Shown here: positions 2 to 48,345 of the stretch, piece by piece
Position numbering within the stretch: the stretch's first letter is position 1
Layout: every line of letters starts with the position of its first letter
Source: a virus
Taxonomy: Duplodnaviria > Caudoviricetes
Length of the DNA: 64,000 nt
Virus record (IMG/VR): IMGVR_UViG_3300031555_003522
Coordinates: 128,001-192,000 of that record
Strand: one strand, 5' to 3'
Notes under the pieces: model-generated
Seen by the model: only the letters and a program-made list of their open reading frames with translations
Databases searched by the model: none
Told to the model about the DNA's origin: nothing
Position numbers and translations under genes: made by a program

Positions 2-1333
2 CAGCTTAAGAAATATTATGATGAGAATCTCAGATTCAGCCAGGAAGTTATTAATGTACTCCATCCATATCTCGATCAGGGATATGCTCCCGAATACGAG
101 TTACAAAGATTGATATCTATTTGTAATGGAGCACTTAATGGTAAACAATATTTTTCTGAAAGAGTATTCTCGAATATTGTATTAGAAGTTACTCTTATTG
201 AAGAAATTCCTGTTCTTCGTGGTGATAAACTGTCTAATAGATATGGTGGTAAAGGCATTACCTCCAGAATCAAACCAGATAAGTTTATGCCTAAAACAAA
301 AGATGGACAAACTGTAGATGTTATTCTCAATATGTGTGGTGTTTATGGACGTGAAAATGCTGGTCAGTTGTTTGAGATTACAGTAAGTTATGTATGTATC
401 AAACTGCTTGAGTTTATTCAGACAAATACTCTAGACGTCGGAGAATGTATAAATCTATATTTAACGCTTTTGAAAATAGTGGCGCCATCTATGGTTTCTT
501 ATATGGAAAATATGTTCTCATCTATGGATGAAGATGAGTGTATTAGATATATTGGAAATATTTTGTCTAGCGAGAAATCTATTTATCTTGTCATTGAACC
601 TATGACAGAAAATATGACTATCGATAAAGTAGCAGAACTTTATGAAGCATTTAGCTGGATAAATCAGGAAAAGATGTTGATGCCTATCGTAGACTCTATG
701 GGAGAAGTAAATTATATTCCGTCTAGACGTCCTATGGTTTATGGATATCAATATATCTATAGATTGAAACAGTATGCAGAGGAAAAGTTCTCCGTTACCT
801 CACTATCTGCAACCAATATTAGAAATGAGAATAGTAAATCAAAGAGTTCTAATAACTATAAAGCTCTATATTCCCGCACTCCTATTAGATTCGGCGACAT
901 GGAAACGGGAAATTTAATCCATCTTGGAGCTGAGCTAGTTGTTCAGATGCTTATGCTTTATTCTACATCTCCTAATGCAAGACGTCTTACAGCAGAAATG
1001 CTTACAGGAGATCCTTTCAATATTGATGTAAAACTCGATGATAATTCTACAAATAGAAATGTAGAAATCCTTAATGTGTATCTGAAGACAATGGGTCTAA
1101 AGATTACATTTAAGAAGATTCCCAAAGAAATTAATCATCCTATTCTTATTCAACCAATCACCTTTACCGATCCTAAAGAACACTATGGATCACCTATCAT
1201 ATTCCAGCATCCTGATGAGAAATTCTCTATAGAAGCTGAAGTAGAACGTTTGGTTAATGAGGAAAATGCACCCAAGCATCCTATAGAAATCATTCCCATT
1301 GATTTCCTTAGTGATCTTGAGCCATTTGAATAA
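2..1333 (+). CDS. Phage multisubunit RNA polymerase beta subunit, C-terminal part (5' truncated by window edge)
   Basis: Frame is open from position 2; motifs GDKLSNRYGGKG, VDVILN..GVYGREN.GQL.E, YIYRLKQ and RFGDMET match the RpoB C-terminal regions. Confidence 0.93.
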   Translation, partial: QLKKYYDENLRFSQEVINVLHPYLDQGYAPEYELQRLISICNGALNGKQYFSERVFSNIVLEVTLIEEIPVLRGDKLSNRYGGKGITSRIKPDKFMPKTKDGQTVDVILNMCGVYGRENAGQLFEITVSYVCIKLLEFIQTNTLDVGECINLYLTLLKIVAPSMVSYMENMFSSMDEDECIRYIGNILSSEKSIYLVIEPMTENMTIDKVAELYEAFSWINQEKMLMPIVDSMGEVNYIPSRRPMVYGYQYIYRLKQYAEEKFSVTSLSATNIRNENSKSKSSNNYKALYSRTPIRFGDMETGNLIHLGAELVVQMLMLYSTSPNARRLTAEMLTGDPFNIDVKLDDNSTNRNVEILNVYLKTMGLKITFKKIPKEINHPILIQPITFTDPKEHYGSPIIFQHPDEKFSIEAEVERLVNEENAPKHPIEIIPIDFLSDLEPFE

Positions 1334-1337
1334 AAAT

Positions 1338-1377
1338 ATTATGGGTATAGAGAAAATCTCTATACCCATAATTTCTT
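1338..1377 (+). terminator. Intrinsic terminator hairpin
   Basis: attatgggtatagaga / tctctatacccataat inverted repeat followed by a T-rich tail. Confidence 0.8.
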
Positions 1378-1404
1378 AAAAAATCTTAATTTCTTTTTAG
1401 AATA

Positions 1405-1420
1405 TATATTATTTTTATAG
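1405..1420 (+). promoter_or_regulatory. Early-type promoter motif TATATTAT upstream of the ligase
   Basis: Core matches the motif found at 13 intergenic sites; the 3' part is TAG rather than TGA. Confidence 0.55.
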
Positions 1421-1437: not shown

Positions 1438-3735
1438 ATGCTTAATAAATTAAAAACAATTCTTAATTCCCTTTTAGAAGGAAGCCTAGAATATCTGACT
1501 GTTGATAATATTACACAAGTATCTCAAGAAGCAGTTAGAATTATTCAAAAGCCCGAGCCATTAGATCAGTATGATGTAATGTGTATGGGTATTATAATTT
1601 CTATTAGTCAGATCGTCTATAATAATACAGATAGATCTATATTATTCTTAGATGATGGCGTTTATGACCTACTGCTTGAAAGATATCGTGTATATAATGA
1701 AAACTTTCAAGTTGGAGCACCGGTTATAAACTTCAATCAAAACGGAGAAGAAACAAAAGAAATCGAATATTCTGAACCTATTAGTTTCATCTCGGATGAT
1801 CCTCAAAAGTTTATAGATAATAGTCTATATTATAATGACTTATCTAAACATCCGCCACTGGACTTGAGGCTATTTCCTCAAATCGATAGAAATTCTGGAG
1901 TATTAATATCAAAGAAGAATGTGAGTGTTCCTCACATGTATCCTAAGCTTGTTGGATCTTTAGATAAATGCAAGTTCACTTTGGATAATGAAGCTATTGA
2001 ACGCGGAGTGTATAATGATCCTTCTGTAAAGATCTTTGAACGAGATTTTCTTGCAAAGCATCTTAGAATGGGTCTTATTGATATGGCTACCCCATTTGAA
2101 TTAATAGCTGAATTAAAGTACGATGGCGTATCTGTAGAGGCTGATGTTACTCATGAAATATTGAGTGCAAGATCCAGAGGAGACGCCAATAATGATCTTG
2201 CAGCAGATATGTCTGAAATCTTTAGAGGATATCGTTTCCCTTATGCAGAGGTATTGCCTAAAGAAGAAGCTTTTGGCATGAAGTTTGAGGCCATCATGTC
2301 TTATGCGGATTTAAATGTAATGGCCGAGCTTAGAGGTAAAGACTACAAGAATAGTCGTAATGGTATCATTGGATTACTCGGTGCATCTGATGCATATAAT
2401 TTCAGAGATCTTATAACTCTTGTACCTCTTGCTACTTCATTTGAAGGTATTGATAGAGTTACAGAAATAGAATTTCTTAATAAGTATTACCATTCTGGAG
2501 AATATCTCAGATATTCTATTCTGCGTGGAACTTATGTAGATATCCTGTATCAAGTATATCAGTTTGTTAAAGAAGCTGAGACTATGAGATCATCTTTACC
2601 TTTTATGTATGATGGAGTAGTTATCTCTTATAGAGATCCGAAGATTATAGAGGCTTTGGGTAGAGAGAATTCTATCAATAAATATAGTATGGCTATCAAG
2701 TTTAATCCATTGGTTAAAGAAACTACCTTTATTGGATACAGCTATACTGTTGGTCAGGATGGAGTAATTACTCCTATGATTCATTATAATGCTGTAGAAT
2801 TCTATGGAACTATTCACACAAAATCTAGCGGTCATTCTTATAAGAGATTTATGGATCTTGGATTGGCTAAGGGCGATGTCATCCAGGTAGAGTATACTAA
2901 TGATGTAATGCCTTATGTAACAAAACCTAGGGTATCTAAAAACTTCATTAATAGAAATCCTCCTATTCCATTCCCGGAGTTCTGTCCTTATTGCAACACC
3001 AAGATTATCATTCATGAATCTGGAAGATCTGCCACATGTCCCAATATGAATTGTCCAGATAGAGTGGTATCTAGAGTTGCTAATATGGCTGCTAAATTAG
3101 GTCTTAAGGATTTTGGAGAAGAGACTTTTAGACGCCTTGGAACCAGATCTCTGACAGAGATGTTCAATTACACCTATGACGATCTTGCAATACTTGGGCC
3201 TTTAAACGCCGAAAAGCTACTGAGTAGAATAAATGAGCTCAAAACAACACCAATATATGATTTTAAAGCCATCGGTGCTATTGGATTTACAAGTGTTGCT
3301 ATTGAAACATGGAAGAAGATCCTCAATGTATTACCGTTTGCAAGAATTATTACAGATTCTGATGCAGATCTTTATGATGATCTTGTATCTATTAAGGGTA
3401 TTGGCCCAAAGATTGCTGAGACAATAGTAAATGAAAGAGTCTATTTAAAGGACGACATTAATTCTATTTTCTCTATGCCGAATATTGTATCCTCCCTTGG
3501 AATGAAAGCAAGTAAAGTTATAAGATTCACTGGCTGTAGACCAGATGACGACTTGTATAACTATCTTTGTTCAAGAGGCTGTGATGCAAATAAGGACGGA
3601 AGTGTGACTAAGAATACAGACGTTCTTGTTGTTCCCTATATTGGGTTTACTTCATCTAAAACAAGTAAAGTTGGTTTAGGTACAAGAGTTGTAGACATGG
3701 TCGCATTCAGAGCAAATCCTGACATGTATTTATAG
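1438..3735 (+). CDS. ligA: NAD-dependent DNA ligase
   Basis: ELKYDGVS adenylation motif, SRG, YDGVVI, AIKF, VGQDGVITP, Zn finger CPYC...CPNMNC, HhH KGIGPKIA, C-terminal BRCT-like IRFTG. Confidence 0.95.
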   Translation: MLNKLKTILNSLLEGSLEYLTVDNITQVSQEAVRIIQKPEPLDQYDVMCMGIIISISQIVYNNTDRSILFLDDGVYDLLLERYRVYNENFQVGAPVINFNQNGEETKEIEYSEPISFISDDPQKFIDNSLYYNDLSKHPPLDLRLFPQIDRNSGVLISKKNVSVPHMYPKLVGSLDKCKFTLDNEAIERGVYNDPSVKIFERDFLAKHLRMGLIDMATPFELIAELKYDGVSVEADVTHEILSARSRGDANNDLAADMSEIFRGYRFPYAEVLPKEEAFGMKFEAIMSYADLNVMAELRGKDYKNSRNGIIGLLGASDAYNFRDLITLVPLATSFEGIDRVTEIEFLNKYYHSGEYLRYSILRGTYVDILYQVYQFVKEAETMRSSLPFMYDGVVISYRDPKIIEALGRENSINKYSMAIKFNPLVKETTFIGYSYTVGQDGVITPMIHYNAVEFYGTIHTKSSGHSYKRFMDLGLAKGDVIQVEYTNDVMPYVTKPRVSKNFINRNPPIPFPEFCPYCNTKIIIHESGRSATCPNMNCPDRVVSRVANMAAKLGLKDFGEETFRRLGTRSLTEMFNYTYDDLAILGPLNAEKLLSRINELKTTPIYDFKAIGAIGFTSVAIETWKKILNVLPFARIITDSDADLYDDLVSIKGIGPKIAETIVNERVYLKDDINSIFSMPNIVSSLGMKASKVIRFTGCRPDDDLYNYLCSRGCDANKDGSVTKNTDVLVVPYIGFTSSKTSKVGLGTRVVDMVAFRANPDMYL

Positions 3736-4466: not shown

Positions 4467-4480
4467 TTTAAATCACGATG

Positions 4481-4540: not shown

Positions 4541-5203
4541 ATGTCTTTAGTAAAGGCTAAAATAGGTGAAACCATCTATGATGTAGTCAGCTACGAAGAA
4601 TATTATAGAAATATGTCACTATATCCAGCAGCATATACTGCTATTAGATATGGTGATGGGTATATATATCCCATTAGACCTCTGTCTGACTATAGACCTG
4701 GCGCATATATGACAGGATGTTTGGATGTTTTTAAACCTCCTACGACTGCTACAGAATGCGCTATGTATAGTGAACAGAATATCATAGATTTCACTAAGGC
4801 TGAAGGTATGAGAGATCTCATAACCTGTAGCCAGATGCTCAATGCCGCAGAGAGATCTATTCTTACAAATATAGACAACCTATTTATTCCCGATATTGGT
4901 GAGAATGATACTCCTGAAATGCAGGCTCTTAAACAGGCGATTATTGCAAAGCATATAGATCTCGATAAGTATGAACCTCGGTTTGGCCCTAATTATAATA
5001 ATGATAAGAGACTTCTGAGGAAGGATAGAATCACATTTGATAAATTCCGTACAATTGGTGAATGTTTGGATATTAAGGCAACTTTAACCATTGAAGATGC
5101 TAACCCTGATGTTCCTAATCCTATTGGACGAGCTATTAGTGTAGAAATTACTGGCCGTCCTATGTCTATCGATGGCGATGGTGAAGTGGAGGTACAGGAA
5201 TGA
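4541..5203 (+). CDS. Hypothetical protein
   Basis: ATG at 4541 follows a GAAAGGGG RBS (the track start at 4478 overlaps the terminator); stop overlaps the next ATG (ATGA). Confidence 0.75.
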   Translation: MSLVKAKIGETIYDVVSYEEYYRNMSLYPAAYTAIRYGDGYIYPIRPLSDYRPGAYMTGCLDVFKPPTTATECAMYSEQNIIDFTKAEGMRDLITCSQMLNAAERSILTNIDNLFIPDIGENDTPEMQALKQAIIAKHIDLDKYEPRFGPNYNNDKRLLRKDRITFDKFRTIGECLDIKATLTIEDANPDVPNPIGRAISVEITGRPMSIDGDGEVEVQE

Positions 5204-6975
5204 ATCAACGTGAAGCCATTGCTGGTTTTATAAATGAAAACCGAGCAAAATTTAATCCGTTATTCTTTCAAAGAGATGAAGATGAAATCATCAAAGAATT
5301 GATGAATGTAATTAAATCTTGTGAAAGAGATAATAAGTATTTTACTATTAAAGTACAATCATATAGAATCATTGATGATTATGATGAAATCAATCAGATT
5401 CTCTTTGATTATTATGAGAGTACTACAAAAAATAAATCCAAGGCTAAGAAACGAGACAATCAATATGGATTTATTAATCTTAATGAGTCTTATATTAGAC
5501 TCTTGATTGTGACTTATTATGTCAAGGATAGTAAAGAGGATGGTACAATTGATGTTGTGATCGCTGTACCTAGAATTATTGATAGATACTATTTCAAGAT
5601 TAATGGAATTATGAGATCCACTCTGTTCCAGATAGTCGATGGTAGTACCTATAATAATGGTACTTCTAATGCTAAAACTCCTAGTATTACTCTTAAGATT
5701 ATCTTTATGGCAACAAGAGTTACAAGATATTTCTTAAGTGTAAAAACAACTGAAGGAGACGAATTAAAGCTTACACATTATTACTCTCGTATCTTTAGTA
5801 AGGGTGTGAGCGCTGCAAAATATATATTTGCAAAGTTTGGCTTCTTAGGAGGATTAGATTTCTTCGGTCTTGCAAATGGATCTATCTTTATTACCAAAAA
5901 TGATCCTTGTGATACTAGCCTATATACCATTCAGTTACAGAATGAATGTTATATAAATAGTCCTAAAATGATTCTTGATAATAATGTGCTTGTACAATCT
6001 GTTATAGCAACACTATATCAAAATATCATTCCTTCTATGGATTATGAGACTATCTTTGATCCTGTTTTCTGGGTAAGAAGCCTTGGAGTAGAATTTAGTG
6101 GTGGCGGAGCCGAAAGACTTGCTGCTATTATGGATCCTGAAGATGATACCGTTACAGATACCTACGATAAAGGTTGTAGCATTCTTGATTCTTTCGAATC
6201 TATATATGATATCAGTACAAGAGAGTCTATTAAGCTCCCTGAAGAAGATAAAGCTACCACTTATCATATTCTTAGATGGATTATGAGAGAATTTAATGCC
6301 CTCAGAGTAAAGGATAATCTTGACATTAGTTGTAAGAAAATTCGATTCGCTGAGTATATTGCATCTCTCTATGCGTTTAAGATCGCTAAGGGTATATATC
6401 GTGTATCTGATATGAATAAGAAGGCTAGTATATTAAGCATTCGTAAAGCTATTAGAACCGATCCGAATTTCCTTTTAGCCGCTATAACCAAATCTAAAAT
6501 GGTATCTTATCGTAATATGGTTAGCGATATGGATTCTATGCAAGCCCTTAAATTCACATATAAAGGTGTATCTGGACTTGGAGAGAATTCTAATCAGTCT
6601 ATTCCTGATATTTATCGTTCTATTCATCCTAGTCATATAGGAAGAGTAGACCTTGATGCGTCTTCTGATGGTAATCCTGGTATTACTGGAACAATCTGTC
6701 CTTTCGCATCTATCTATGACGGCTTCTTTGAAGATTATCAGGAGCCTAATAGCTGGGAACAGGATTTTATGTCTGTAATGGATGACTATAAGAAAGCTAC
6801 CAATTTGAAAGATGCTATGATCTTTGAAGAAAAAATTCTTGGTACGGATAGACATGAAGATATAGAAGCTACCTCTGAAGTCATCGCTACGATGCAACAA
6901 ATCATTAAACCTGTTCTTTTTGCAGATCAGGGAGAGATTGTTTCATTGGAGGATGTTTATAATGGCAGCTATTAA
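5200..6975 (+). CDS. Phage RNA polymerase beta subunit, N-terminal part
   Basis: YFKING...QI and RSIHPSHIGRVDLDASSDGNPGITG correspond to RpoB FIING and H.SHYGR.CP..TPEG.N.GL. Confidence 0.88.
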   Translation: MNQREAIAGFINENRAKFNPLFFQRDEDEIIKELMNVIKSCERDNKYFTIKVQSYRIIDDYDEINQILFDYYESTTKNKSKAKKRDNQYGFINLNESYIRLLIVTYYVKDSKEDGTIDVVIAVPRIIDRYYFKINGIMRSTLFQIVDGSTYNNGTSNAKTPSITLKIIFMATRVTRYFLSVKTTEGDELKLTHYYSRIFSKGVSAAKYIFAKFGFLGGLDFFGLANGSIFITKNDPCDTSLYTIQLQNECYINSPKMILDNNVLVQSVIATLYQNIIPSMDYETIFDPVFWVRSLGVEFSGGGAERLAAIMDPEDDTVTDTYDKGCSILDSFESIYDISTRESIKLPEEDKATTYHILRWIMREFNALRVKDNLDISCKKIRFAEYIASLYAFKIAKGIYRVSDMNKKASILSIRKAIRTDPNFLLAAITKSKMVSYRNMVSDMDSMQALKFTYKGVSGLGENSNQSIPDIYRSIHPSHIGRVDLDASSDGNPGITGTICPFASIYDGFFEDYQEPNSWEQDFMSVMDDYKKATNLKDAMIFEEKILGTDRHEDIEATSEVIATMQQIIKPVLFADQGEIVSLEDVYNGSY

Positions 6976-8581: not shown

Positions 8582-8926
8582 ATGGCTGCAAATAAACCAT
8601 ATGACATAACTCCGATTCCTCAAGAACCTATAGAAGAAGGACTTATAAATCCTATTATCTTTAATAGACCCGATATGTGCCCAAATTGTAAATCGCAAAA
8701 GGTAGAGCTTATGAGCTTTAATAACTATCCTCAAGGATATAATGGAGCCGTAGATGCTTTTCTATCTGGTTACTTGGTAACATTCGATAAATATGAGATA
8801 AGAAGTATGAGATGTAAGTCCTGTACTAAAGAATTTGTTATCGATTGGGCTGAGGGATTCCCAAAACCCTTAAGAGACACAGATAAAAGTAATATTTTCT
8901 TTATGGAATTTCTTGCAGGTATATGA
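8582..8926 (+). CDS. Zinc-ribbon protein
   Basis: CPNC ... CKSC pairs; AAGGAG RBS. Confidence 0.7.
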   Translation: MAANKPYDITPIPQEPIEEGLINPIIFNRPDMCPNCKSQKVELMSFNNYPQGYNGAVDAFLSGYLVTFDKYEIRSMRCKSCTKEFVIDWAEGFPKPLRDTDKSNIFFMEFLAGI

Positions 8927-13339: not shown

Positions 13340-16300
13340 GTGACTCTAATGATTAAAGGTAGAAATCCTGGAGACAATATAACATTGATGAATACAATGT
13401 TTGTTCAAGGGACTGATCCATCTGATGGTAAATTCCATCAAACGATGACATTGGTTTATAAAGATCTTGATAGTGGTCTTAAGCATGTAGAGGAGATCGA
13501 CGATCCTGATTATGAATATTTTATGATTCACCCAGATAAGAGGGTGGATTATAATAGATTATTTGTATCTAAAGACGATGTAGAACGTATTGTAGTTCCA
13601 TATGGATCTTTGGAAAAAGATATAGCTTTGAGGCTTGGATTTAAAGAATTCTATTACGATAATATTCGTACTGGTAATAAAGGTGAGAATAGAAAACTTC
13701 ATATCCATCCTGATCTATTTAATAGTGATATGAATATAGAGGATCACTATAAATTCAGATTTGACAAGATGTATAGAAATGAAACTTGCCCTATAACAAA
13801 AGCATTTTTTGATATTGAGGTTGATAGTATTAATATGATGGGAGACTTCCCAGAACCTGGTGAATGTCCTGTTAATGCTATAACTCTTATTTGCCAAGAT
13901 GTTCATCAAGTATATACATTCTTGTTGAGAACTAAATCCAATCCTCAGATTATTGAATTTGAAAAGCAAGTTAATGACGGCTCTATATTTCCAGAATTAA
14001 CTAATTTCGTTATAGAGGCCGTTGGTGGTCCTCAAGTAGCAGCATCATATGAGATTAATTTTAATTACAATTTCTTATTCTATGATGAAGAAGATGAGAT
14101 TAATCTTATTAAGGATTTATTTGTAGCCATTAATATTCATAAACCAGATTTTGCACTGGCATGGAATATGGGCTTCGACGTTCCGTATATTATTCAGAGA
14201 ATAATAAATCTTGGATATGATCCTTGTGACATAATGTGCCATCAGGATTTTAAACGCAAGATTGTAAAATATATGGTAGATGAGAGAATGAAAAATGAAT
14301 TGGCTGAACGAGGAGATTATGCGGCAATATCTTCTTATACTGTATATCTCGATCAGATGATCCAATTTGCGTCTCGACGTAAAGGACAAAGTAAGTTTTT
14401 ATCATTCTCATTGGATTACATCGGTGAGCATATTGCTGGTGTAAGAAAGCTTGACTATAAAGCTATAACCACGAATATTGCAGAGCTTCCTTATAAATCT
14501 TATAAGACCTTTGTATTCTATAATATAATCGACACCATAGTTCAGTATTGTATTGAGATGAAGACAAAGGATATAGATTATGTATTTGGTAAGGCTCTTT
14601 TAAATAATACAAGATATTCTAAAACCCATAGACAGACTGTTTATTTGACTAATAGAGCTGCTAAAGTTTTTGATGCACAGGGATTTATTATTGGTAATAA
14701 TGCTAATAAGTTTAATAGCAAACCGGATGAAAAATTCCCTGGAGCGTTTGTAGCAGATCCTGAAAAAGTTAATAATACTTCTCGAATGCAAATTTATGGG
14801 TTATTTATAAACTTATTTGACAATTGTGTGGATTTCGATTAAGCAATAGTCGCTTAATTCAGTAATGGATTAAGAAAACTCCCTTAATTGCTGGAAACTC
14901 TAGCAGAAGTGATATAATTGCTTCATCCATATATTATAAATATGGTGCTAGACAATCAGCAGCCAAGAAAAATTGTAAAGGAGACTTTTATCGTGAGAAG
15001 ATATGAGTTCGAAATCCCTATAGATATAATAGATCCATCTATTCTATTGAATGGGGAAAGATTTGAATATATAACAGAAGATATTGTTCCTGGGGTATAT
15101 CCATATTATATGGTATCGAATTGTGGCAGAGTATATCACAGGTATCTTCAATGTATAATGAAACAGGGTTTAGAAACGAGTGGTTATCTATTTATAACTT
15201 TAGCTACTTGTAATGGGCCAAAGATAATTCAAATGAATAGACTAGTCTTAATGACATTTGACCCTAATCCAAATTGCCATGAACTACAAGCAAACCATAA
15301 AGATGGTAATAAGCTTAACAATTATCTCTATAATTTAGAATGGGTAACAAGATCTGAAAATATTATTCATGCATATGAAACTAAACTTCATATACCAAAG
15401 AGCAGTATTTCAGAAGATCAAGCTATTCAAATAGTAGAATTACTAAAAACCAATCAATATCAGTGTAAAGAAATAGCTATTATGATGGGTATTAATGAAA
15501 ATATAGTAAATTCTATTAAGAAAAAAGAATCTTGGAAAAGATTAACTAGAGATTGCAATTTTGATGCTAGACAAGGAAAGTTATATACGGATAATGATGT
15601 TCGTATTTTATGCGAATATTTTCAAAATAATCCAAAATTAGAAGGTCTAGAATCTAAAGCTTATGTACTAGAAGCTTTGATATCTTGTGGATTTGATAAC
15701 CCACAAGATAAAGTAGATACGGCAAGAAAGATCTATTCTAAAAAACATTATACTAGAATTTCTAAAGATTACAATTTTTAAGGTTCAACGACTATCGAAA
15801 GGATAATATGAGAGAAATACTCATATGAATAACCGAGTAGAGTAGAGTTCTAGTGAACTCGAAATGGGGAGCGTCCTATAAACGGTAACAGAATATAGGA
15901 TGATGATATAGTCTAATCTATATGGTGACATATAGCAGCTTACAAGCGGTATAAGATTAACGACCTTATATGAATAAAAATGTTTGCTTCGCTATACCCA
16001 TCTTTGATCCGTCAGTTTAATATAGCAGCTAATACTATTATTGGTAAGCTGATGATTAATGACAAAGTTCATGACAAAGAAAATATTTCTGATATGGATA
16101 ACTGGACTAGAGCTGGTGCATTTATGGAAGATATTCAGTCTCAGCAGTGGCTAGAGTTTACTTCCAGATGGTTTGGACTGCCAGATTATACTGTTCTGTA
16201 TCATGAAGTAGAGAGATTCTTTACGCAGATTGCTAATGCGTATCTCGGTCTTAGGGTCTACGAAAGAGATGGAACTATAGAGCCTATCACATTTGATAAA

Positions 16301-16441
16301 GATGGTCTTATGTGTGAGCCTATTGTATTTGAAGATAACGAAAGAAGAGAGGTTATAGATACCTATATCCCTCAGAATCTAAATAAATGGATGGAGTGGA
16401 GAAATCATGCAATTATGTATCCGAACCAGCAATTTAAATAG
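13340..16441 (+). CDS. polB: Family B DNA polymerase, N-terminal part (3'-5' exonuclease plus motif A); exons 13340-14839 and 15983-16441, 652 aa spliced
   Basis: ExoI FFDIEVD, ExoII WNMGFDVPY, ExoIII YNIIDT, FPGAFV; splicing gives DFD|FASLYPS (motif A). Confidence 0.93.
14840..15982 (+). mobile_element. Group I intron in polB-N motif A, carrying an HNH ORF
   Basis: P1 cgaU/gucg with U-G at the splice site; aagcaa pairs with 3' exon ttgctt (P10); core aattgctggaa, aatcagcagccaag, gttcaacgacta, gatatagtct; terminal G at 15982. Confidence 0.92.
14993..15781 (+). CDS. Intron-encoded HNH homing endonuclease (NUMOD4/I-HmuI-like)
   Basis: YMVSNCGRV, GYLFITL, NRLVLMTF, NHKDGNKLNN..NLEWVTRSENIIHA; probable GTG start at 14993 after AAGGAG. 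Confidence 0.9.
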   Translation: MRRYEFEIPIDIIDPSILLNGERFEYITEDIVPGVYPYYMVSNCGRVYHRYLQCIMKQGLETSGYLFITLATCNGPKIIQMNRLVLMTFDPNPNCHELQANHKDGNKLNNYLYNLEWVTRSENIIHAYETKLHIPKSSISEDQAIQIVELLKTNQYQCKEIAIMMGINENIVNSIKKKESWKRLTRDCNFDARQGKLYTDNDVRILCEYFQNNPKLEGLESKAYVLEALISCGFDNPQDKVDTARKIYSKKHYTRISKDYNF

Positions 16442-17207
16442 TGGAATGATTCCTATAGCAGATTTCAAATATCTCTATGAATTAGCAAAATGCAGTAAAT
16501 GTCAAATGTTTATATTAAAGGATAATGTATTATATGGAGCAAGTGATGAATGTGCTTCTATTCATGAAATACCTGTTCCATATCAGACTAATACTGATTT
16601 AATGTTTAGAGTGGATATGGTACCCAAAGATATGCTAGATCAATATGATACATTCTTTATTCCATCTGATTTTGATTGGGTTATTTTGCCATCATATTAT
16701 TGGAATATGTATATCGCTGGTGATCTTGAAGCTCTATACTCTCCAGAAATTGATCAGTATGTGGTTCTAGATAAAACTACGAAAATGCCTATACAGCAGA
16801 TATTTATAAATAAATATAGATCTGTAGACGACTTTGCGAGAAAAAGAATGATAACCCAATTAGATGCATACTTTAATAGAACTAAAACATTATTACCGAG
16901 ATATGAATTTAGAGACATTCATACAAATCCAGCAATTCAATATATCTTTGAATCTAAAACTATAGCTGGAGAATCTTTAGTTCATCTATCCGATGGAAAT
17001 AAAAATGTAGCTTTCTATTTGTTCAAAGGAATGTTTACGTTAGGTAAATCTGATGTACTCCATGTAGATATAAGATTTGATGCATTCGATTCTAATCTAT
17101 TTGTAGCTAGTTTTAAACCGGTAAAAAAGAAGAATCCTATGACACTCAAAACATATGGAGTTCCATTCAGTGAACAAATACATTGTATGTATATAAATTT
17201 GGTATAA
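16407..17207 (+). CDS. Hypothetical protein co-transcribed with polB-N
   Basis: 266-aa ORF overlapping the polB-N stop; GGAG RBS. Confidence 0.75.
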   Translation: MQLCIRTSNLNSGMIPIADFKYLYELAKCSKCQMFILKDNVLYGASDECASIHEIPVPYQTNTDLMFRVDMVPKDMLDQYDTFFIPSDFDWVILPSYYWNMYIAGDLEALYSPEIDQYVVLDKTTKMPIQQIFINKYRSVDDFARKRMITQLDAYFNRTKTLLPRYEFRDIHTNPAIQYIFESKTIAGESLVHLSDGNKNVAFYLFKGMFTLGKSDVLHVDIRFDAFDSNLFVASFKPVKKKNPMTLKTYGVPFSEQIHCMYINLV

Positions 17208-19717: not shown

Positions 19718-19724
19718 AAAGAAT

Positions 19725-19762
19725 AATCCCCACTGGATAATTCCAGTGGGGATTTATATTTT
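19725..19762. terminator. Bidirectional terminator between portal and tube
   Basis: aatccccactgga / tccagtggggatt with A- and T-rich flanks. Confidence 0.8.
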
Positions 19763-19763
19763 A

Positions 19764-20621
19764 TTAGATACTGGTACGAGTAACAGAATCCTGAATCAGC
19801 TTAGTCTGAGCCAGACCACTATGAGCATCGCTAAGAGCAGCATAGTTGTAATCCCAGCTATTACGGTGTACCATCTTGCTATTGGCAGAGGAGTTCATCC
19901 AATCGAGGATCTTCTTTGCACGAGCATTGATAGCGGAACCAGTAATGGGGAATCCACTAAACTCAGCAGAGATTTCCTGGAACTGAACATCACCCTTATT
20001 GCCATTAAAGATAGACAACTGAGCGGTAGTGGGCATACAACCAACAAGGTAGACAGCTCTCTCAACCAGCAGACCAGTATTATCGGTATGCAGGTACAGG
20101 AAGCTAAAGCATTCCTTGTGGAAGCCAGCATCATTTGGCAGAATCTGTCCGTTTTCAAAACCGATCATACCATTATAGGTCTTAAAACCGGTTGCAGGAT
20201 CACGAACAGAACGCAGATACAGTTCATGCATCTTAGTAATAGTTGCACCAGACTTTTCCATGTAGTTCATAGAGAAGTTGGAGCCACCCTGGCCATTAAC
20301 CTTGGTAATGACATTCATAGCCTGGAGACCATTTTCGATAGGAGTAGAATCGGAACTCATATCCTCCAGACCAGAGCCAAATCCACGGAATTCATACTCA
20401 AGAATATGAGTATAGGAATTAACCAGCTGAGCAACCTCAGTATCAGCTTCGGCCATCTTACGCAAGAATTCGGGAATAGAAACCACGATCAGATAAGGAT
20501 AACCACTCTCGTACAGATCAAACTGCTGAAGCTGAGTAAAGTCCGTAGTACCACGGAACAGCGTATAAGCAGTAATATCACGAGGGGTCTTCAGATCGGT
20601 AAACATATTATACTGACCCAT
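19764..20621 (-). CDS. Putative tail tube protein
   Basis: Directly downstream of the sheath; strong codon bias; beta-rich, with a YLVGCMPT / EISAEF pattern. Confidence 0.65.
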   Translation of the reverse strand: MGQYNMFTDLKTPRDITAYTLFRGTTDFTQLQQFDLYESGYPYLIVVSIPEFLRKMAEADTEVAQLVNSYTHILEYEFRGFGSGLEDMSSDSTPIENGLQAMNVITKVNGQGGSNFSMNYMEKSGATITKMHELYLRSVRDPATGFKTYNGMIGFENGQILPNDAGFHKECFSFLYLHTDNTGLLVERAVYLVGCMPTTAQLSIFNGNKGDVQFQEISAEFSGFPITGSAINARAKKILDWMNSSANSKMVHRNSWDYNYAALSDAHSGLAQTKLIQDSVTRTSI

Positions 20622-20645
20622 AAGTATTATTCTCCTTTCTTAAGA

Positions 20646-22499: not shown

Positions 22500-22597
22500 T
22501 AACGTTTCCTCCTTTATAATATTTATAATTTAAAAAGATCTTTAATGCATAAAATTAGAGCATTACAGCTTTTTATTTTTATGTTATGAATAGCAAA

Positions 22598-23332: not shown

Positions 23333-23421
23333 ATAAATACCACCTTTTATAAGTATTAATTTAATGTAAAAATAATAAAAAACTAGAAGGGTGAGAATCA
23401 CCCTTCTAATATATAATAGAC

Positions 23422-25280: not shown

Positions 25281-25385
25281 AATTTAGTTTCCTCCTTAAA
25301 TTTAGGTTTAATAAAATGTTTAATTTTTTCCTCATATAGTGATATGTTTTTATATAATGGGGTGGAAAACCACCCCATCAATATA

Positions 25386-26957: not shown

Positions 26958-26974
26958 TATTCTTTACCTCCTTC

Positions 26975-28897: not shown

Positions 28898-29081
28898 AAG
28901 GTGTTTTTCCTCCTTTATAAAATAATTATAAATCGAAAAATTCATAGTCCCATAAGGAATCTATTACTCAAATGTTCATCATTGTAGGCATCTCTCGACC
29001 TTAGTTTTACCATCTATAAACCAACCAAAAAAAAATAAAATAAAAGATATAGAGGTCTCCACTGGGAGACCTCTATATTAA

Positions 29082-40481: not shown

Positions 40482-42701
40482 ATGGAAAGTGCAAAAGAAT
40501 TAGGGTGTTTAAGATACCCAGAAAACTATGGTATGTATGCCGACATCATAGAAGGTAAGCAAGTCTGTATTCATACAGATGATCTTACTACTGGCACTTG
40601 GGACAGACATTATACATCTGTGTTAAATCTATTTAAAGATGGAATTGCTACAGAAGAAGTCCAGGGTGCCTTTATTCATGTACACTTTATAGATGGAGTA
40701 GATCTTGAGATTGCTCTTACAGATTATTTGCTTAATCTTATTATGTGGAATATGCTTATAAGAACGGGAACCCTTATCTGTTCTTATCATGTATTTTTCG
40801 CCGATGAGATCAAGAAAGATACAATTAAGGATTATATTGATAAGTTTCTTATTGATGAAAATCGTAAGAGATATACTAATATGGAACTTAATAACATCAT
40901 TGACGATACTCTTTATAGAATTCATGATATAGATGAATTCGCATTCTTCTTTGCAAATACTGTTAATCTTGAAGATAATGTATTCTTGATGCAGAGATGT
41001 GAAGAATTCAATGAATGTATGCATGCAGATTTGTCTGGTGTAGCTATTGAAGATGTAAAGTCTGTTGGCATGGGATATGCTAATAAAGCTATCCATATTA
41101 TGAAGAATGCTAGTCAATATCTTGGATTCGATCACTGCTTAGCGGATGCATGTAGAGCATCAGAAGGCATTAACCCTAAACAGTTTAAAGAATTTACTAT
41201 TAATATTGGTAGTAAACCTGATGGTCATGGAGGTATCTTCCCAGCCATTATCAACAAGTCTTTTATTAATGGTGGTGTTTCTACACCATTAGACTATTTT
41301 ATTGAGTCTTCTACAGGTCGTACAGCTCAGATAATCAAGTATAATAACGTTGGTTCTTCTGGTCATTTTGCACGGCTTCTTGGACTTAATAACATGGATT
41401 CTTATTTGAATGAGAATCCAAATTATGACTGTTATAGTCGTAATTTCTTGGTCATCACTATCAAGGATAAGAAGACCCTTAAGATGCTTAATAACAGATA
41501 TTATAGACTCAATCCTAGGGGTAAAGAGTTGTTAATATCTGCATCGAAAGATAAGCATCTTATAGGAAAAACAATTTATCTTAGATCTCCAGTTACTTGT
41601 GCATCTGCTGCAAGAGGTCAGGGAATCTGTTATAAATGCTATGGTGATTTAGCTTATACTGTCTATGATGCAGAGGTGCAAGCTGGTGTCAATATAGGCC
41701 GTATTGCTAGTGAGACACTATCATCTAGCCTAACCCAGAAATTGTTGTCTGCTAAACATCTTCTCGAAACATTTGCAGAAAAGGTTTCTTGGGTTAGAAA
41801 ATTTAATGAACTCTTTGAAGTTGAAGGTAATGTGATTAAGCTTAATTCTGAAATTGAATATAAGGGATTAAGATTAATAATTGATCCTGAAATGATTGAA
41901 TTAGAGAATGAAGAAGATGACGATCTTGGATTTTCTGATGATGATGAGGAAGGCGGCGCACCTATCTATAATGAGTATATTGTAGATTTTGATGTTATCG
42001 ACGAGAATATTCCTGAATATCATCATATCTCAAATGATAAAAACGTTAAACTTTATATCTCTAATGAATTGAGATCTATTATTCGTAGAAAAGGTGAGCC
42101 AATAGAGGGAAAGCATTTTATAGATTTCACAGATATTAAGGATGCTCCTATATTTATTATGCCCATTCAGAATAATGAACTCTCTAAAACTCTTGAGCAC
42201 CTTGAAGGATTGCTTAATAAAAATAATACGATGAAAGGTATGAATCTAAACCAGCTTCTGCAGTCTCTTATTGACACGGTTATTGAAGGTAGACTTAGTG
42301 TAGCATCTACTCATCTTGAAGTAATTCTGTCAAATCAGGCTCGAGATCCTGATAATATTCTCGAAAAACCTAAGTGGTTCTTGTTTAATCCTGGTTATGA
42401 GATTCTATCTCTTAATAGGGCTCTTACATTGAACCCTGCAGTTACTATATCTTTGAGTTATCAAAAGGTAGGTAAGTCTCTATATAGTCCTATTACATTT
42501 AAGAAGAAAGGTTCTTCTTTTATGGATCTATTCTTTATGGAGAAACCGCAATATGCAATTAGTGGAAAAGAGCCTCCTGTTAAAGATGAATATATTCCTA
42601 CTCCTGGAGAGCTCTATGAACCTATTACCTTTATTGATGATCCAGATAAAGTTACAGTATCTGCTCAATCTCTTTCTGATGATGAGGAGGAAGAGGAATA
42701 A
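40482..42701 (+). CDS. Phage RNA polymerase beta' subunit, C-terminal part (probably the non-virion RNAP)
   Basis: Bridge helix GRTAQ...SGHFARLL; LRSPVTC...GICYKCYG; trigger loop TQKLLSAKH; HLEVILSNQ. Confidence 0.92.
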   Translation: MESAKELGCLRYPENYGMYADIIEGKQVCIHTDDLTTGTWDRHYTSVLNLFKDGIATEEVQGAFIHVHFIDGVDLEIALTDYLLNLIMWNMLIRTGTLICSYHVFFADEIKKDTIKDYIDKFLIDENRKRYTNMELNNIIDDTLYRIHDIDEFAFFFANTVNLEDNVFLMQRCEEFNECMHADLSGVAIEDVKSVGMGYANKAIHIMKNASQYLGFDHCLADACRASEGINPKQFKEFTINIGSKPDGHGGIFPAIINKSFINGGVSTPLDYFIESSTGRTAQIIKYNNVGSSGHFARLLGLNNMDSYLNENPNYDCYSRNFLVITIKDKKTLKMLNNRYYRLNPRGKELLISASKDKHLIGKTIYLRSPVTCASAARGQGICYKCYGDLAYTVYDAEVQAGVNIGRIASETLSSSLTQKLLSAKHLLETFAEKVSWVRKFNELFEVEGNVIKLNSEIEYKGLRLIIDPEMIELENEEDDDLGFSDDDEEGGAPIYNEYIVDFDVIDENIPEYHHISNDKNVKLYISNELRSIIRRKGEPIEGKHFIDFTDIKDAPIFIMPIQNNELSKTLEHLEGLLNKNNTMKGMNLNQLLQSLIDTVIEGRLSVASTHLEVILSNQARDPDNILEKPKWFLFNPGYEILSLNRALTLNPAVTISLSYQKVGKSLYSPITFKKKGSSFMDLFFMEKPQYAISGKEPPVKDEYIPTPGELYEPITFIDDPDKVTVSAQSLSDDEEEEE

Positions 42702-43992: not shown

Positions 43993-45513
43993 ATGATGAC
44001 AAAAATCATTATATATCGTACCCATATAGAAATTACAGATTATATGATGGGAGATTGTCCTATTGTAGAGAAGACCTTCTCTATTTATGATATGACTTAT
44101 CATAAAAGATTTCCAAAAGGAATGCTTTATGATAAAGAAAGAAAAGTATTAATGCTTCCAAGAGGTATTAATATTGGTTTTTTAGAACGAGTATTTCAAG
44201 TAGAGCCTATAATAGATAGCACAGTAGATCCTATTGGTGATATTGGAGAGGTTATGCTTAGATATAAACCAAGGGATGAAGATCAAAAAGAGGCTATAAA
44301 GTTTATGCTTAGTATGGATAAGTATTTCCGTAATGAGCACGCTACCATGATGTCTGTTAATCTAAATACTGGTAAAGGTAAAACATATTGTGCTATAGCT
44401 GTAGCAGCATTCTTAAGAATTAGATCTATAGTTATAACTGATAGTATAGGATGGCTAGACCAGTGGAAGAAGTTCTTTATGGAGTATACAGATATTAAAG
44501 AAGAAGAAATATATATGATATCTGGAGCTCCATCTCTTATGAAATTATATAATAGAGATATGACTAAGTATAAAGTTATTCTTTCTACTCACTCTACTAT
44601 TAGAAGCATAGGAGACAGCCAAGGATGGAATAAAATAACAGATTTCTTTAGATATTGCCAAATTGGTATCAAATTCTATGATGAAGCTCATTTAAATTTT
44701 GATAATATGTTTCAGATAGATTGCTATACCAATACTAATGTCACATATTATCTTACGGCTACACCTGGTAGAAGTGATATGAAAGAAAATGCAATATTCA
44801 ATTTATACTTCAAAAATGTACCATCTATAGATCTATTTAATAGAGATGTAGATCCTCACACGAAATATGTAGGTATAAGATTTAACTCAAATCCAACTCC
44901 GATTGAAGTATCTAGATGTAAGAATAATTATGGACTTAATAGAATAGCATATACGGATTACATTGTGAGGAATGAGAACTTCCAAAAATTGCTCACAATA
45001 CTGGTTACTATGGCTATTAAGAAACCAGGAAAACATTTATTCTATATAGGAACTAATGATGCAATCTTATATGTAAGAAATTGGATATATGAGCATTTTC
45101 CAGAACTGATTAATCAGGTTGGTATATATACCAGTATTATTCCAGCAGAAAAGAAAGCTGAACAACTAGAAAGAAAGATAATTCTAAGCACTACAAAATC
45201 TGCTGGAGCTGCTATGGATATAAAAGGTCTTGTAGAAACTGTAAATCTTGCAGAACCTTTTAAATCCAGAGTGCTAGCTCAACAAACGTTTGGACGAACT
45301 AGAGATGCTGATACAATATATAAGGATATTGTAGATAATGGATTTCTTTATACAAAATCATATTATGATTTTAAGAAACCTGTATTTAAGAAGTATGCTA
45401 CAGAATGTCTTGAAGTTCGTATGCTTGATAGTGAATTAGATAGTAGACATCAAAGTATACTATTTGAAAGATCTAAATTAGAGCAACCAATAGAATTTGA
45501 TATAAAGGACTGA
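43993..45513 (+). CDS. SF2 DEAH-box helicase (UvsW-like)
   Basis: PRDEDQ Q-motif, NTGKGKT, FYDEAH, LTATP, QTFGRTR; AACT-N6-TG at 43972-43983. Confidence 0.9.
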   Translation: MMTKIIIYRTHIEITDYMMGDCPIVEKTFSIYDMTYHKRFPKGMLYDKERKVLMLPRGINIGFLERVFQVEPIIDSTVDPIGDIGEVMLRYKPRDEDQKEAIKFMLSMDKYFRNEHATMMSVNLNTGKGKTYCAIAVAAFLRIRSIVITDSIGWLDQWKKFFMEYTDIKEEEIYMISGAPSLMKLYNRDMTKYKVILSTHSTIRSIGDSQGWNKITDFFRYCQIGIKFYDEAHLNFDNMFQIDCYTNTNVTYYLTATPGRSDMKENAIFNLYFKNVPSIDLFNRDVDPHTKYVGIRFNSNPTPIEVSRCKNNYGLNRIAYTDYIVRNENFQKLLTILVTMAIKKPGKHLFYIGTNDAILYVRNWIYEHFPELINQVGIYTSIIPAEKKAEQLERKIILSTTKSAGAAMDIKGLVETVNLAEPFKSRVLAQQTFGRTRDADTIYKDIVDNGFLYTKSYYDFKKPVFKKYATECLEVRMLDSELDSRHQSILFERSKLEQPIEFDIKD

Positions 45514-45645
45514 TATTTACCCGTAGAGAGATAATGCTCTCTACGGGTATTTTCGTTAAATAAAATAAGTTTAAAGATATAATATAATTATGAATAGATG
45601 AGAAATATTTCTCATCTATATCATTTATTTAAGGAGGCCAGAAAA

Positions 45646-47472
45646 ATGGCAAAGAGTAAGTACTACGGAGTCCGTTTCACCGATGCCGTGAGATATTGGT
45701 GGATGGACAGAACTTTCGACATTGAAAAACATGTCGATAAGATGCGTAGAGATCGCGTGAACCGTGCAGCCGGTACAAATTGCGAAGCCAAGGAGACTAA
45801 TAGTGTCTCTAATAATAACAATGCTGCAACAACAACCGCTACCGAGACTAGTGTCAAGGAAGCTCCCGCTACCGATACTAAGAAGGAAAAGAAGAATATT
45901 TTCTCCAAAGTATTTGGTAAGAAAAATACTGAAGCTACAAGTACTTCTGAGGATCCTGTAGCCGAAGAATCCGAAGAAGTTATCGCCGCTTCTAAGGAAG
46001 CACCTGCAGAAGAACCCGGTGCAGAAAAAATGGAAAACAATAACGATCCCATTGTAGGCGATATCTGTTCTGCCAATCAGCAGAATGGCCAGAACCCTGT
46101 CGAGGGTATCAACATTGGTGGTATCCATTTTGACATGGATATGACTGTTGAAGAAAAAGTAGAACCTAGTCTTCTTAAGCAGACATCTGTGAGTGATCAG
46201 AACAATATGTTCAATCAGCCTCAGGTATTCCCTGGGCAGCAGCCTGTGATGCAGAATTCTGCATTTGTACAGCAACCCGTTATGGGAACACATCAGATGA
46301 ATGTTCCCTCGGGAACACCTCAGATAAATGTTCCCCCTATTCAGCAGCCCATTGTTAATCAGCCTATGACAACACCTCAGCAGCCCCCCATTCATCGAGT
46401 GGATGCACCTCCCAAGGTCATTACTCCCAAGCCTCCCAGAGCTGAAGCGGATCATGTAGAGGTAAGCAATACAAATATCGCTCAACCCTTCGTTGATCCG
46501 AATAAGCACAATAAGGTTATTCGTGATCAGCATCCTGATATCATTCAGAAGGAGACACCTCATATTCCGGATAAGCCTTCTGAACAGTTGTACGACAACA
46601 GCTTGCTGATTGCAGCATTTCCCTATCTTGGAGAAATCCAGAGAATCGCATTGAAGCATCATATCCAGCTTAAGATGGAAATGCTGGGTTATGCTGCAAA
46701 TCCCATGATTCAGACTGGCATGGTATTGTGCTATGCATTCAATGATGGGACGAATATCTTCAATGAACTCAAGAGCTTTACGATCGATACCGGAAATATC
46801 ATCGATCGTAGACCCAAGTTGTTCACAGGCATCGTTCTGAATGGGTTTGAAGATATGCCTGCATACGCTATCCAGATCAATGACAAGATCAATAAGAATA
46901 AGTATAACTTCAATGAAGAAATGTTCGAAAAGATCTTCGTTGGAGGTATCACTATGCTTGATGGTCGCGGTATGTACACCCAGCAGTATCGCAAGCTCAA
47001 TAAGATCGTTGATCTGAGCACTATGCCCACCAAGTTGATGAACGGTGAGCGCCGCAAGGCAGTTCAGGACCGTCTGGTAAAGGCTTTGACTGCCGGTGTA
47101 TTCGACAAAGCTATTGCAATGGCACCTGGTTCCAGATTCGAGTTCAAGGATGATTCTTACGATAAGGATCGTGGAACCTTCGTCCTGACCAATGTCAATG
47201 TACCTGTGACATTCAACGGACCTATCGTAAATACGATTCCTACCGAGATCACCTTTAAGACCGGCGCCCAGGTGTTTGTCCACTCTCCCAATAATCCGCC
47301 TGCAGATACAGCTTCTTCTGATACCGCTCAGGAAGCCGAAACTCCTAAGCAGGAAAAGAAGACAAAGAGCGGAAGCAAGAAATCCAATAAGAAACAGAAT
47401 GAGGATAAAGTAGAGACAGAAGCCACTACAGAAACATCCTCTTCTAATGCCGCTAATACTAGCGAGAATTAA
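45646..47472 (+). CDS. Hypothetical early protein with long low-complexity (T/E/K and Q/P) regions
   Basis: ATG at 45646 after AAGGAGG; TATAATAT-N5-TGA at 45578-45593. Confidence 0.8.
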   Translation: MAKSKYYGVRFTDAVRYWWMDRTFDIEKHVDKMRRDRVNRAAGTNCEAKETNSVSNNNNAATTTATETSVKEAPATDTKKEKKNIFSKVFGKKNTEATSTSEDPVAEESEEVIAASKEAPAEEPGAEKMENNNDPIVGDICSANQQNGQNPVEGINIGGIHFDMDMTVEEKVEPSLLKQTSVSDQNNMFNQPQVFPGQQPVMQNSAFVQQPVMGTHQMNVPSGTPQINVPPIQQPIVNQPMTTPQQPPIHRVDAPPKVITPKPPRAEADHVEVSNTNIAQPFVDPNKHNKVIRDQHPDIIQKETPHIPDKPSEQLYDNSLLIAAFPYLGEIQRIALKHHIQLKMEMLGYAANPMIQTGMVLCYAFNDGTNIFNELKSFTIDTGNIIDRRPKLFTGIVLNGFEDMPAYAIQINDKINKNKYNFNEEMFEKIFVGGITMLDGRGMYTQQYRKLNKIVDLSTMPTKLMNGERRKAVQDRLVKALTAGVFDKAIAMAPGSRFEFKDDSYDKDRGTFVLTNVNVPVTFNGPIVNTIPTEITFKTGAQVFVHSPNNPPADTASSDTAQEAETPKQEKKTKSGSKKSNKKQNEDKVETEATTETSSSNAANTSEN

Positions 47473-47562
47473 TAAAAGATGGGGAGACTCCTCCCCATCT
47501 TTTTTTTTTTGATTTGTATAAACTCTACAACTCTATAGTAACCTATTTTGAGGAGAATAGAC

Positions 47563-48345
47563 ATGGCAAAAAGAGTTCTAGAAGAACCTATTGAGTTCTT
47601 TAAGATAGATAAAATATCGGATGATGTTTATGCATTAGGTCCGAATGTGGTATTAAAATTTAATGTATCTCTTTCCAAGGTGGCGAATGGAAAGAGATAT
47701 CATTTTCATAAAGAATATGAATATCCTTCTAAGTGTAATGATATTCCTACAGTTGCTACAATCAAAAGAAGTTTTGATTATTATCTTTCTATAGAGAATA
47801 TTCAGAAAGATGATAATGGAAATAAAGCATTTATAAGAATTGGAGCTCAAGAGTATATGATATTTAAACGCGCTTTAGATGTCGTAACCTCTTGGTTCAC
47901 TTCTGAAGAATTTAAATACCTTTTTGCAAGAAATAAAGGTAAACTTATTATAACTAATCCTATTCCAGAGTTTACTATATCAAATTTACCTATGCAGAAG
48001 GTTATAACATTTGTACCTACAATAATAGATAAAGGTATAGCTAATGATGATAAAGAACCTGGCATAAGAATGTATATAGGCGATAATTCATCTTTTGTAG
48101 ATATGGATTTAGATCGATTTATGGGATTATATTATGTATTCTCATGCTTCAATATGTATCAAGCTGCAACCATTATGATAAATTATCTAGAAAGACCAGA
48201 ACTTGGTACAAATAGATTCGTAATGGATGTACCTCAACAATCTTATAATTATAATAAAGAATCTAAGAGTGGAGCTGAAGGTATAACCGGAAGAGTTGTC
48301 ACTCCAAAGAATTCAAAAAATAATATAAGTGCATTAGGAGGATAA
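47563..48345 (+). CDS. Hypothetical protein
   Basis: ATG at 47563 after GAGGAG; AACT-N6-TA at 47529-47540. Confidence 0.8.
   Translation: MAKRVLEEPIEFFKIDKISDDVYALGPNVVLKFNVSLSKVANGKRYHFHKEYEYPSKCNDIPTVATIKRSFDYYLSIENIQKDDNGNKAFIRIGAQEYMIFKRALDVVTSWFTSEEFKYLFARNKGKLIITNPIPEFTISNLPMQKVITFVPTIIDKGIANDDKEPGIRMYIGDNSSFVDMDLDRFMGLYYVFSCFNMYQAATIMINYLERPELGTNRFVMDVPQQSYNYNKESKSGAEGITGRVVTPKNSKNNISALGG

Follow-up and report, generated by a model that had tools for sequence, protein, structure and literature searches.

A recurrent Pro-aliphatic-x-Phe peptide in the tails of replication and transcription enzymes of an uncultured giant gut phage is a probable docking motif

About twenty unrelated DNA and RNA enzymes and binders encoded by an uncultured giant gut phage carry, on flexible ends or linkers, copies of a short peptide of the form Pro-Ile-x-Phe (P-I-x-F), which is probably a short linear docking motif, with all copies most likely tethered to one common partner. 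The stretch of DNA analysed, referred to here as the window, comprises 64,000 nucleotides and corresponds to bases 128001-192000 of a 207,861-bp IMG/VR phage record (IMGVR_UViG_3300031555_003522; G000), the completeness of which is estimated at 84%. A shared docking motif is the best reading because of the enrichment of the peptide, its placement in tails, the retention of its position in relatives, and an Ile-to-Met change that is confined to the tail copies. Its consensus is E-[LM]-[IVY]-[EQ]-P-[I/M/V/L]-x-F-x-[DE], situated in a flexible N- or C-terminal tail or linker and often in tandem, and the motif is shown below to be a selected peptide feature outside folded domains, found at the same place in orthologues and changing in concert across proteins. 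No description of the motif was found in the literature searched, while the principle of motif-mediated recruitment to a hub is already known.

The RNA polymerase (RNAP) beta' piece of this phage is ~30% identical to that of the Bacillus phages AR9 and PBS1 and other uracil-DNA jumbo phages. Two close relatives, G001 (223,865 bp) and G002 (221,227 bp), both ~75% identical to this genome, were compared whole, with G004 (helicase 33% identical) serving as a distant relative. The clade is common in gut metagenomes, with each of three homologue searches returning hundreds of homologues. The gene set used throughout contains 227 open reading frames (ORFs) chosen by a greedy longest-ORF rule, amounting to 63,254 residues.

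Enrichment and placement of the motif

Over the whole genome, P-I-x-F is observed 31 times against 8.2 ± 2.8 in 1000 within-protein shuffles (z 8), with the longer forms [EQ]-P-I-x-F and [EQ]PI.F[DEN] observed 14 and 7 times against 0.71 and 0.15, respectively. The control patterns IP.F, F.IP, PL.F, PV.F, PI.Y, PI.L, and AI.F show no excess over the shuffles. An unbiased scan over ~32,000 three-residue patterns (every abc, ab.c, a.bc, and a.b.c) places PI.F second (Poisson p 6e-10), behind the zinc-finger pattern CP.C, and iteration of a position-specific scoring matrix recovered no variants beyond PI.F. The initial annotation of the window, made from its sequence alone, had listed twelve sites, all of which are present where it placed them, and the enrichment over shuffled controls on which it had staked the motif is borne out by these counts.

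The codons for Pro, Ile, Phe, and the preceding Glu vary synonymously between copies, at every motif position, and the repeat is therefore a feature of the peptide rather than a translated DNA element. A chance pattern, or the translation of repeated DNA (for example an intron core or a promoter), is refuted by this codon variation, by z values of 8 to 16 against shuffles, by the retention of the motif's position in relatives, and by the motif-bearing tails themselves, which remain open over 30 to 120 codons in DNA of 33% G+C.

The copies are concentrated near protein ends, with 20 of the 31 lying no more than 50 residues from an end, a zone that holds 33.5% of all residues (p 4e-4), and with [EQ]P[IM].F occurring 11 times in this zone against 0.3 expected. 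When split by functional class, the motif occurs 1.68 times per 1000 residues in 32 nucleic-acid enzymes and binders, compared with 0.23 for the 22 virion proteins and 0.21 for all others (p 1e-4), in agreement with the earlier impression that structural proteins are almost devoid of it. A logo of 50 tail copies drawn from three genomes reads E(-4) [LM](-3) [IVY](-2) [EQ](-1) P [IM] x F x [DE](+5). Acidic residues make up 50% of position -1 and 44% of position +5 in this logo, over a background of 13%, the latter consistent with the remark in the initial annotation that the motif is often followed by Asp.

The Leu or Met at -3 and the Glu at -1 resemble the L/I-x-E site of the T4 prohead protease gp21; an S77 prohead protease is encoded in relatives, and the phage itself encodes a GroEL-like chaperonin (genome 196689-198461, L009:6689-8461; phrog_5725, E 3e-57) that is kept in G001, G002, G004, and AR9. 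The peptide might on these grounds be taken for a processing, degradation, or folding tag, whether a T4-type cleavage site, a degron, or a handle for the chaperonin, however such a role is very improbable. Glu occupies -1 in just 22 of the 50 copies (Gln in 7, other residues in 21), the invariant Pro, Ile/Met, and Phe would all lie on the prime side with Pro straight after the would-be cut, and the carriers are non-virion enzymes, with virion proteins at background. Furthermore, N-terminal, internal, and tandem copies are ill-suited to a simple degron.

Carriers and their conservation

The RNAP beta-C, beta-N, and beta'C genes of this phage are orthologues of AR9 g089, g105, and g154 (the last corresponding to beta'C), which are non-virion RNAP (nvRNAP) subunits according to the AR9 annotation; the nvRNAP transcribes late genes. 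The beta-C gene (+ strand) begins before the window and ends at 1333, with three tandem tail copies: QPITF (1151..1165, +), past the AR9-alignable part that ends at residue 677 and replaced by EPMYF/YPMVF in G001/G002; SPIIF (1190..1204, +), not kept in G001 and SPFTF in G002; and IPIDF (1292..1306, +), which reads YPMEF/YPMKF in G001/G002. The tail of beta-N (5200-6975), in which AR9 homology stops at residue 515 of 591, carries the Val form KPVLF (6907..6921, +); this site, earlier noted as a degenerate copy, is a true variant that reads KPMIF in the G001 orthologue. In beta'C (40482-42701), EPITF (42618..42632, +) lies past the alignable part, which ends at residue 683, and reads EPMIF in both G001 and G002. 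The orthologues of the two identified virion RNAP subunits, g145 and g078, are without a tail copy.

A sigma-like nvRNAP subunit, the first exon of which lies at genome 53691-54197, begins with MEAMEFFD (LEPMEFHD in G001). This N-end is a copy of the Met type from which the Pro has gone, every other copy in the genome being of the Ile type.

Among the replication enzymes, the NAD-dependent DNA ligase (1438-3735) carries EPISF (1774..1788, +; EPMVF/DPMVF in relatives) in an N-terminal extension, with AR9 homology beginning at residue 149 and Pfam domains at residue 215. The N-terminal half of a split family-B polymerase (polB-N) carries two copies in the tail of its last-exon ORF (15980-16441), in which polymerase homology stops at residue 75; the first, EPITF (16280..16294, +), is not kept in relatives and the second, EPIVF (16316..16330, +), is EPMIF in both G001 and G002. 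QPIEF (45484..45498, +) lies at the C-end of an SF2 helicase (43993-45513). NPIIF (8648..8662, +) is found near the N-end of a 114-residue CxxC...CxxC protein (8582-8926) and reads EPIKF in G002 and DPIIT in G001. EPIEF (47584..47598, +) is situated at the N-end of W1, a 265-residue protein of predicted Whirly/PUR fold (47548..48345, +) that is discussed below as a predicted nucleic-acid binder, a motif carrier, and a hub candidate.

About ten further copies lie outside the window, at the C-ends of a DnaB-like helicase and a PD-(D/E)XK nuclease, at the N-ends of a helix-turn-helix protein and an HNH/NUMOD4 homing endonuclease, and in small proteins of 195 (two copies), 84, 229, and 59 residues.

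On the opposite strand, a virion protein (49427-50191, -; phrog_18911) has the motif-like C-end QPLMF (49436..49450, -) followed by T-V-stop. This protein ends in Q-P-[LIMA]-[MI]-F-T-V in every lineage examined, a form that resembles the docking motif.

The copies also change in concert between relatives. Each genome has a sole enriched P-?-x-F form, which is P-I-x-F here (z 7.9) and P-M-x-F in both G001 (16 against 2.9, z 7.6) and G002 (12 against 2.5, z 6.4). P-M-x-F is what G001 has at all 12 of the tail or linker copies that find a counterpart in it, and at none of the seven in-fold copies (TPIRF, DIPIDF, NPISF, PPIQF, two PIPF, and SPITF); as background, 3.7% of the aligned Ile residues of this genome are Met in G001. 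Alignments with orthologues from AR9 or G004 do not reach the tail copies and do take in the in-fold ones. The in-fold copies in the window, which act as controls, comprise TPIRF of beta-C (878..892, +; the same in relatives), PPIQF of the portal (19154..19168, +; PPISV/APIQF in relatives), and SPITF of beta'C (42486..42500, +), which reads NPLTF in all relatives. The latter had been counted among the motif sites in the initial annotation and falls inside the conserved fold, within the AR9-alignable part; it is excluded from the docking set, and the claim that the motif mostly sits outside conserved folds stands for the tail copies. The tail copies keep their position in G001 and G002 orthologues, as a docking motif conserved in homologues was expected to do.

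Conservation extends beyond the close relatives. In an alignment of the helicase tail from nine lineages, P499 and F502 are the sole invariant positions in the last 32 residues, with the residue between them in the motif's middle position being I, M, V, or L, and the motif is kept on the helicase and beta'C in seven further lineages. At the N-end of W1, the copy in 120 homologues reads PM in 50, PI in 14, PV in 2, and PL in 2, with none in 52, and Ile and Met have interchanged about ten times over this set.

Several observations weigh against reading the motif as the docking signal of a single receptor. Copies at a single locus differ in their middle residue in other lineages (V,V,I; M,V,M,M; I,L), such that a genome-wide strict rule of Ile or Met fails there; the strict habit is not universal, and may partly represent lineage drift within an "aliphatic" position. 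The middle position is best described as aliphatic, with some lineages, including this one, having settled on a single residue across carriers. About 40% of W1 homologues are without a Pro-aliphatic N-end copy. The signal in G004 is weaker than here, amounting only to [EQ]-P-I or Q-x-I-N at tails, and a de novo motif scan of AR9 returned no proteome-wide equivalent. Finally, a receptor was not found by searches for a clamp or a protein binding single-stranded DNA (SSB), or by searches with the ORF at 16407..17207, although the receptor gene could be missing from a record that is 84% complete.

In G004, P-I-x-F itself shows no excess. [EQ]-P-I is found there 13 times (4.6 expected) no more than 50 residues from an end, and the beta-C, beta-N, and helicase tails contain Q-x-I-N; this tail signal is a hint of a diverged form of the motif. 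In AR9, the protein g161 combines a folded domain with a linker rich in G/N/S and an acidic tail with DDDIPF, SPISF, and GGINF-stop, and the DnaB C-end reads GIPF-stop. What these sequences have in common is aliphatic-x-Phe with acidic surroundings, and the bacterial SSB tip DDDIPF is built on the same core (PMC5872125).

Candidate receptors

If the copies share one receptor, it would read all of them, probably as an extended strand, with L(-3), I/M(+1), and F(+3) on one face. Docking of this kind would gather in one place the late polymerase, polymerase B, two helicases, the ligase, nucleases, and regulators. The initial annotation had proposed that a docking motif brings the enzymes to a single hub; the motif is supported by its enrichment, tail placement, kept position, and concerted Ile-to-Met change, while the hub was not found. 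Of the hubs it named, a phage-encoded clamp was not detected, with PF02767 giving nothing in the genome and PF09116 only a match at E 0.1, and the AR9/phiKZ-type phage group is described as being without a classical clamp or recognised primase (PMC7824862). An OB-fold SSB is likewise not found, PF00436 being without a match in the genome, and the suggestion of an SSB survives only in the shape of two Whirly-fold candidates for single-stranded DNA (ssDNA) or RNA binding.

The 266-residue ORF at 16407-17207, which directly follows polB-N and had been put forward as a partner, is rejected as a hub or clamp. It has no Pfam or PHROG match and no counterpart in G001 or G002, both of which keep the motif and have ~860 ORF-free bases between the polymerase and portal genes.

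Two proteins of 411 and 407 residues were also rejected as receptors, the former being annotated as structural in phiR1-37 and the latter being a virion protein in AR9, and Pfam searches with ten conserved proteins without assigned function returned nothing. One conserved protein of 246 residues (phrog_12252, with a paralogue in AR9-like phages) looks, on inspection by eye, helical and rich in His.

The host beta sliding clamp could take the place of a phage clamp, borrowed for the phage polymerase, ligase, helicases, and late RNAP. The apparent lack of a phage clamp, in agreement with PMC7824862, leaves room for such an arrangement; the polymerase, ligase, helicases, and nuclease among the carriers are classic clamp clientele, and beta-clamp motifs and PIP boxes are likewise Gln/Glu-initiated hydrophobic peptides in the disordered ends of such enzymes. 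An E (22 of 50 copies) or Q (7 copies) at -1 together with F at +3 preserves the distance from Q1 to F5 in QL[SD]LF, and unstructured ends are where the copies lie. However, position 2 of the peptide is an invariant Pro, position 3 is aliphatic, and position 4 varies among I, E, V, T, and S, so that the hydrophobic residue stands at position 3 rather than 4 and the 4-5 pair is absent, a misfit to both QL[SD]LF and QxxLxF. The PIP box Qxx[ILM]xx[FY][FY] fits no better, as the logo has just one Phe, at +3, in place of the aromatic pair. Additionally, close phages would not be expected to differ by a concerted Ile-to-Met change if the motif were read by a pocket so well conserved among bacteria, and we regard the host clamp as an improbable receptor.

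In T4, an end that binds the gp45 clamp is common to the gp43 polymerase and to gp33 and gp55, two proteins of late transcription, and late transcription is coupled to replication. The present system is similar in that one short hydrophobic peptide is found on the flexible ends of replication and late-transcription proteins. It differs from T4 in the sequence of the peptide, in that no clamp or clamp loader was detected, in that the RNAP core subunits themselves carry the motif (up to six copies), and in the presence of N-end copies.

A third kind of receptor would be a sorting factor rather than a DNA-bound platform, with the motif acting as a localisation signal into a replication or transcription compartment or condensate. 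Helicase, ligase, and nvRNAP subunits belong to the classes that chimalliviruses import into the phage nucleus (PMC13282480), several proteins of this phage have Q/P/Y- or N/G-rich disordered stretches, and tandem copies of the motif would provide multivalency. The two Whirly-fold proteins described below also show a likeness to ChmC/Imp6, a condensate-forming protein that aids import (PMC11077065, PMC13282480). In contrast, chimallivirus cargo is reported to be recognised by folded surface patches without terminal signals (PMC13282480), whereas the feature common to the carriers here is a terminal linear peptide, and no compartment is known in this clade. Single-sequence searches with phiKZ gp54 (chimallin) and gp69 (Imp1/PicA) gave no match in G000, G001, G002, or G004, a weak negative as no positive control was included, and AR9-like phages are reported to be without chimallin (PMC13282480). 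Because of these two points, a signal for import into a chimallin nucleus, the initial annotation having named an import/localisation factor, is unlikely, and a localisation signal in the wider sense is also doubtful.

Whirly-fold proteins as a possible hub

Our preferred candidate for the receptor, put forward tentatively, is a phage-encoded, nucleic-acid-bound hub formed by two Whirly-fold, ChmC-like proteins, W1 and W2; the host clamp, a sorting factor, or another phage protein are possible alternatives. The AlphaFold2 model of W1 has a pLDDT of 84.5, falling to 52 in the motif-bearing residues 1-10, and shows two repeats of strands followed by a helix (a tandem beta-beta-beta-beta-alpha arrangement, superposable on Whirly/PUR/MRP). 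The top four of 48,161 chains compared with this model are Pur-alpha (Z 8.7, RMSD 4.7 Å over 131 aligned residues), MRP1/2 (7.7), StWhy2 (7.4), and PBF-2 (7.2), with Foldseek returning the same families at probabilities of 0.8-0.99; the Z values are middling and the two methods agree. The W1 profile matches AR9_g161 at E 3e-7 over the whole core, and AR9_g161 is syntenic, making W1 a probable orthologue of that protein. From its modelled fold and the SSB-like tail of AR9_g161, W1 is predicted to bind single-stranded nucleic acid.

Between the helicase and W1 genes lies a gene for a 624-residue protein (45598-47472), which ranges from 459 to 735 residues in relatives. This protein and another of 288 residues (genome 103710-104576) contain long Q/P/Y-rich low-complexity stretches.

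The second protein, W2 (266 residues; genome 195132-195932, L009:5132-5932, outside the window), has a clearer fold than W1, with structure matches to StWhy2 (Z 11.5), PBF-2 (11.4), MRP1/2 (11.3), and Pur-alpha (9.2), the next match scoring 6.2. The fold is followed by a disordered linker rich in S/G/N/Y and a tip, [ST]-A-[TS]-[ILM]-D-D-[LI]-E-stop, that is kept in 120 homologues; the tip of W2 itself, IDDLE-stop, differs from the motif. The disordered N-end of W2 contains near-invariant G4, Y7, N8, and N9. No profile-profile similarity was detected between W1 and W2, and neither gave a tblastn match in cultured phages.

These proteins recall ChmC of the nucleus-forming phages, a tetramer with the Whirly fold that binds both RNA and ssDNA, condenses by means of a tail rich in N/G, and is encoded in an nvRNAP gene block (PMC11077065). 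A 2026 review equates ChmC with the import factor Imp6, which helps to localise cargo in chimalliviruses (PMC13282480). The likeness lies in the Whirly fold of W1 and W2, in the N/G-rich disordered region and acidic end of W2 and AR9_g161, and in the position of W1 within an nvRNAP gene block. The differences are that no sequence similarity is detectable, that the gene for the nucleus shell was not found here, and that ChmC/Imp6 is without a known linear cargo signal.

A Whirly-fold hub would couple late transcription to replicating DNA, as the T4 sliding clamp does. As the AR9 nvRNAP is able to initiate on ssDNA (PMC9209446), tethering of the polymerase to such a hub could supply this coupling. 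A single co-fold paired W1 (residues 1-224, with an alignment of 70 rows) and the tail of the helicase (residues 465-506, with 9 rows); its scores of 0.00, 0.37, and 0.02 count neither for nor against an interaction.

The resemblance to the bacterial SSB interactome, organised around the DDDIPF tip (PMC5872125), extends to the acidic context, the Ile-x-Phe core (I/M at +1, F at +3), and the kinds of replication and repair enzymes involved. The polarity is reversed, with bacteria having the tip on one hub and the pockets on the enzymes, whereas here the tip is on about 20 enzymes; it is not confined to an ssDNA-binding hub, W1 having a single N-end copy. Furthermore, no copy ends in Phe and many are N-terminal or internal, so that a free carboxylate is not required. 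The Phe-ending tails of T7 gp2.5 and the gp4 helicase (PMC10359462, PMC12339929) offer a further parallel, in which more than one replisome protein of a phage docks on the same partner through an acidic, aromatic tail; in contrast to the motif described here, the T7 tails are strictly C-terminal, occur on two proteins only, and are without a Pro-aliphatic-x-Phe core.

A bolder and more speculative proposal, to which we give somewhat less credence than to the Whirly-fold receptor itself, is that in a chimallin-less clade of jumbo phages a portable terminal peptide acts as an address label, gathering the late RNAP and enzymes of replication and repair on a Whirly-fold, ChmC/Imp6-like hub or condensate. 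This would be the linear-signal counterpart of phage-nucleus sorting and an SSB interactome of reversed polarity, with tips on the enzymes and the pocket on the nucleic-acid binder.

The question addressed by these observations is how the replisome of AR9/phiKZ-type jumbo phages, a group without a recognised clamp or primase, holds together, and how late transcription is tied to replication. A portable peptide common to the late RNAP, polymerase B, two helicases, the ligase, nucleases, regulators, and homing endonucleases provides a bait for the organising factor, with the natural Ile and Met lineages offering a built-in specificity swap. Should the receptor prove to be Whirly-fold and ChmC-like, it would link these phages to the protein sorting of nucleus-forming phages.

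Further features of the genome

The genome also encodes a UvsX-like recombinase, in addition to the GroEL-like chaperonin described above. A core protein of 349 residues (genome 75942-76991, L005:4942-5991; orthologue at AR9 193263-194303) has, by eye, CxxC...CxxC followed by EGAFD and PDAD. This layout is that of a DnaG/T7-type primase, with a zinc ribbon plus Toprim, in a group said to be without a primase; the protein gave no Pfam match. Within the window, the region 19659-28945 has a G+C content of 0.40-0.47 compared with about 0.34, and contains long overlapping ORFs on both strands.

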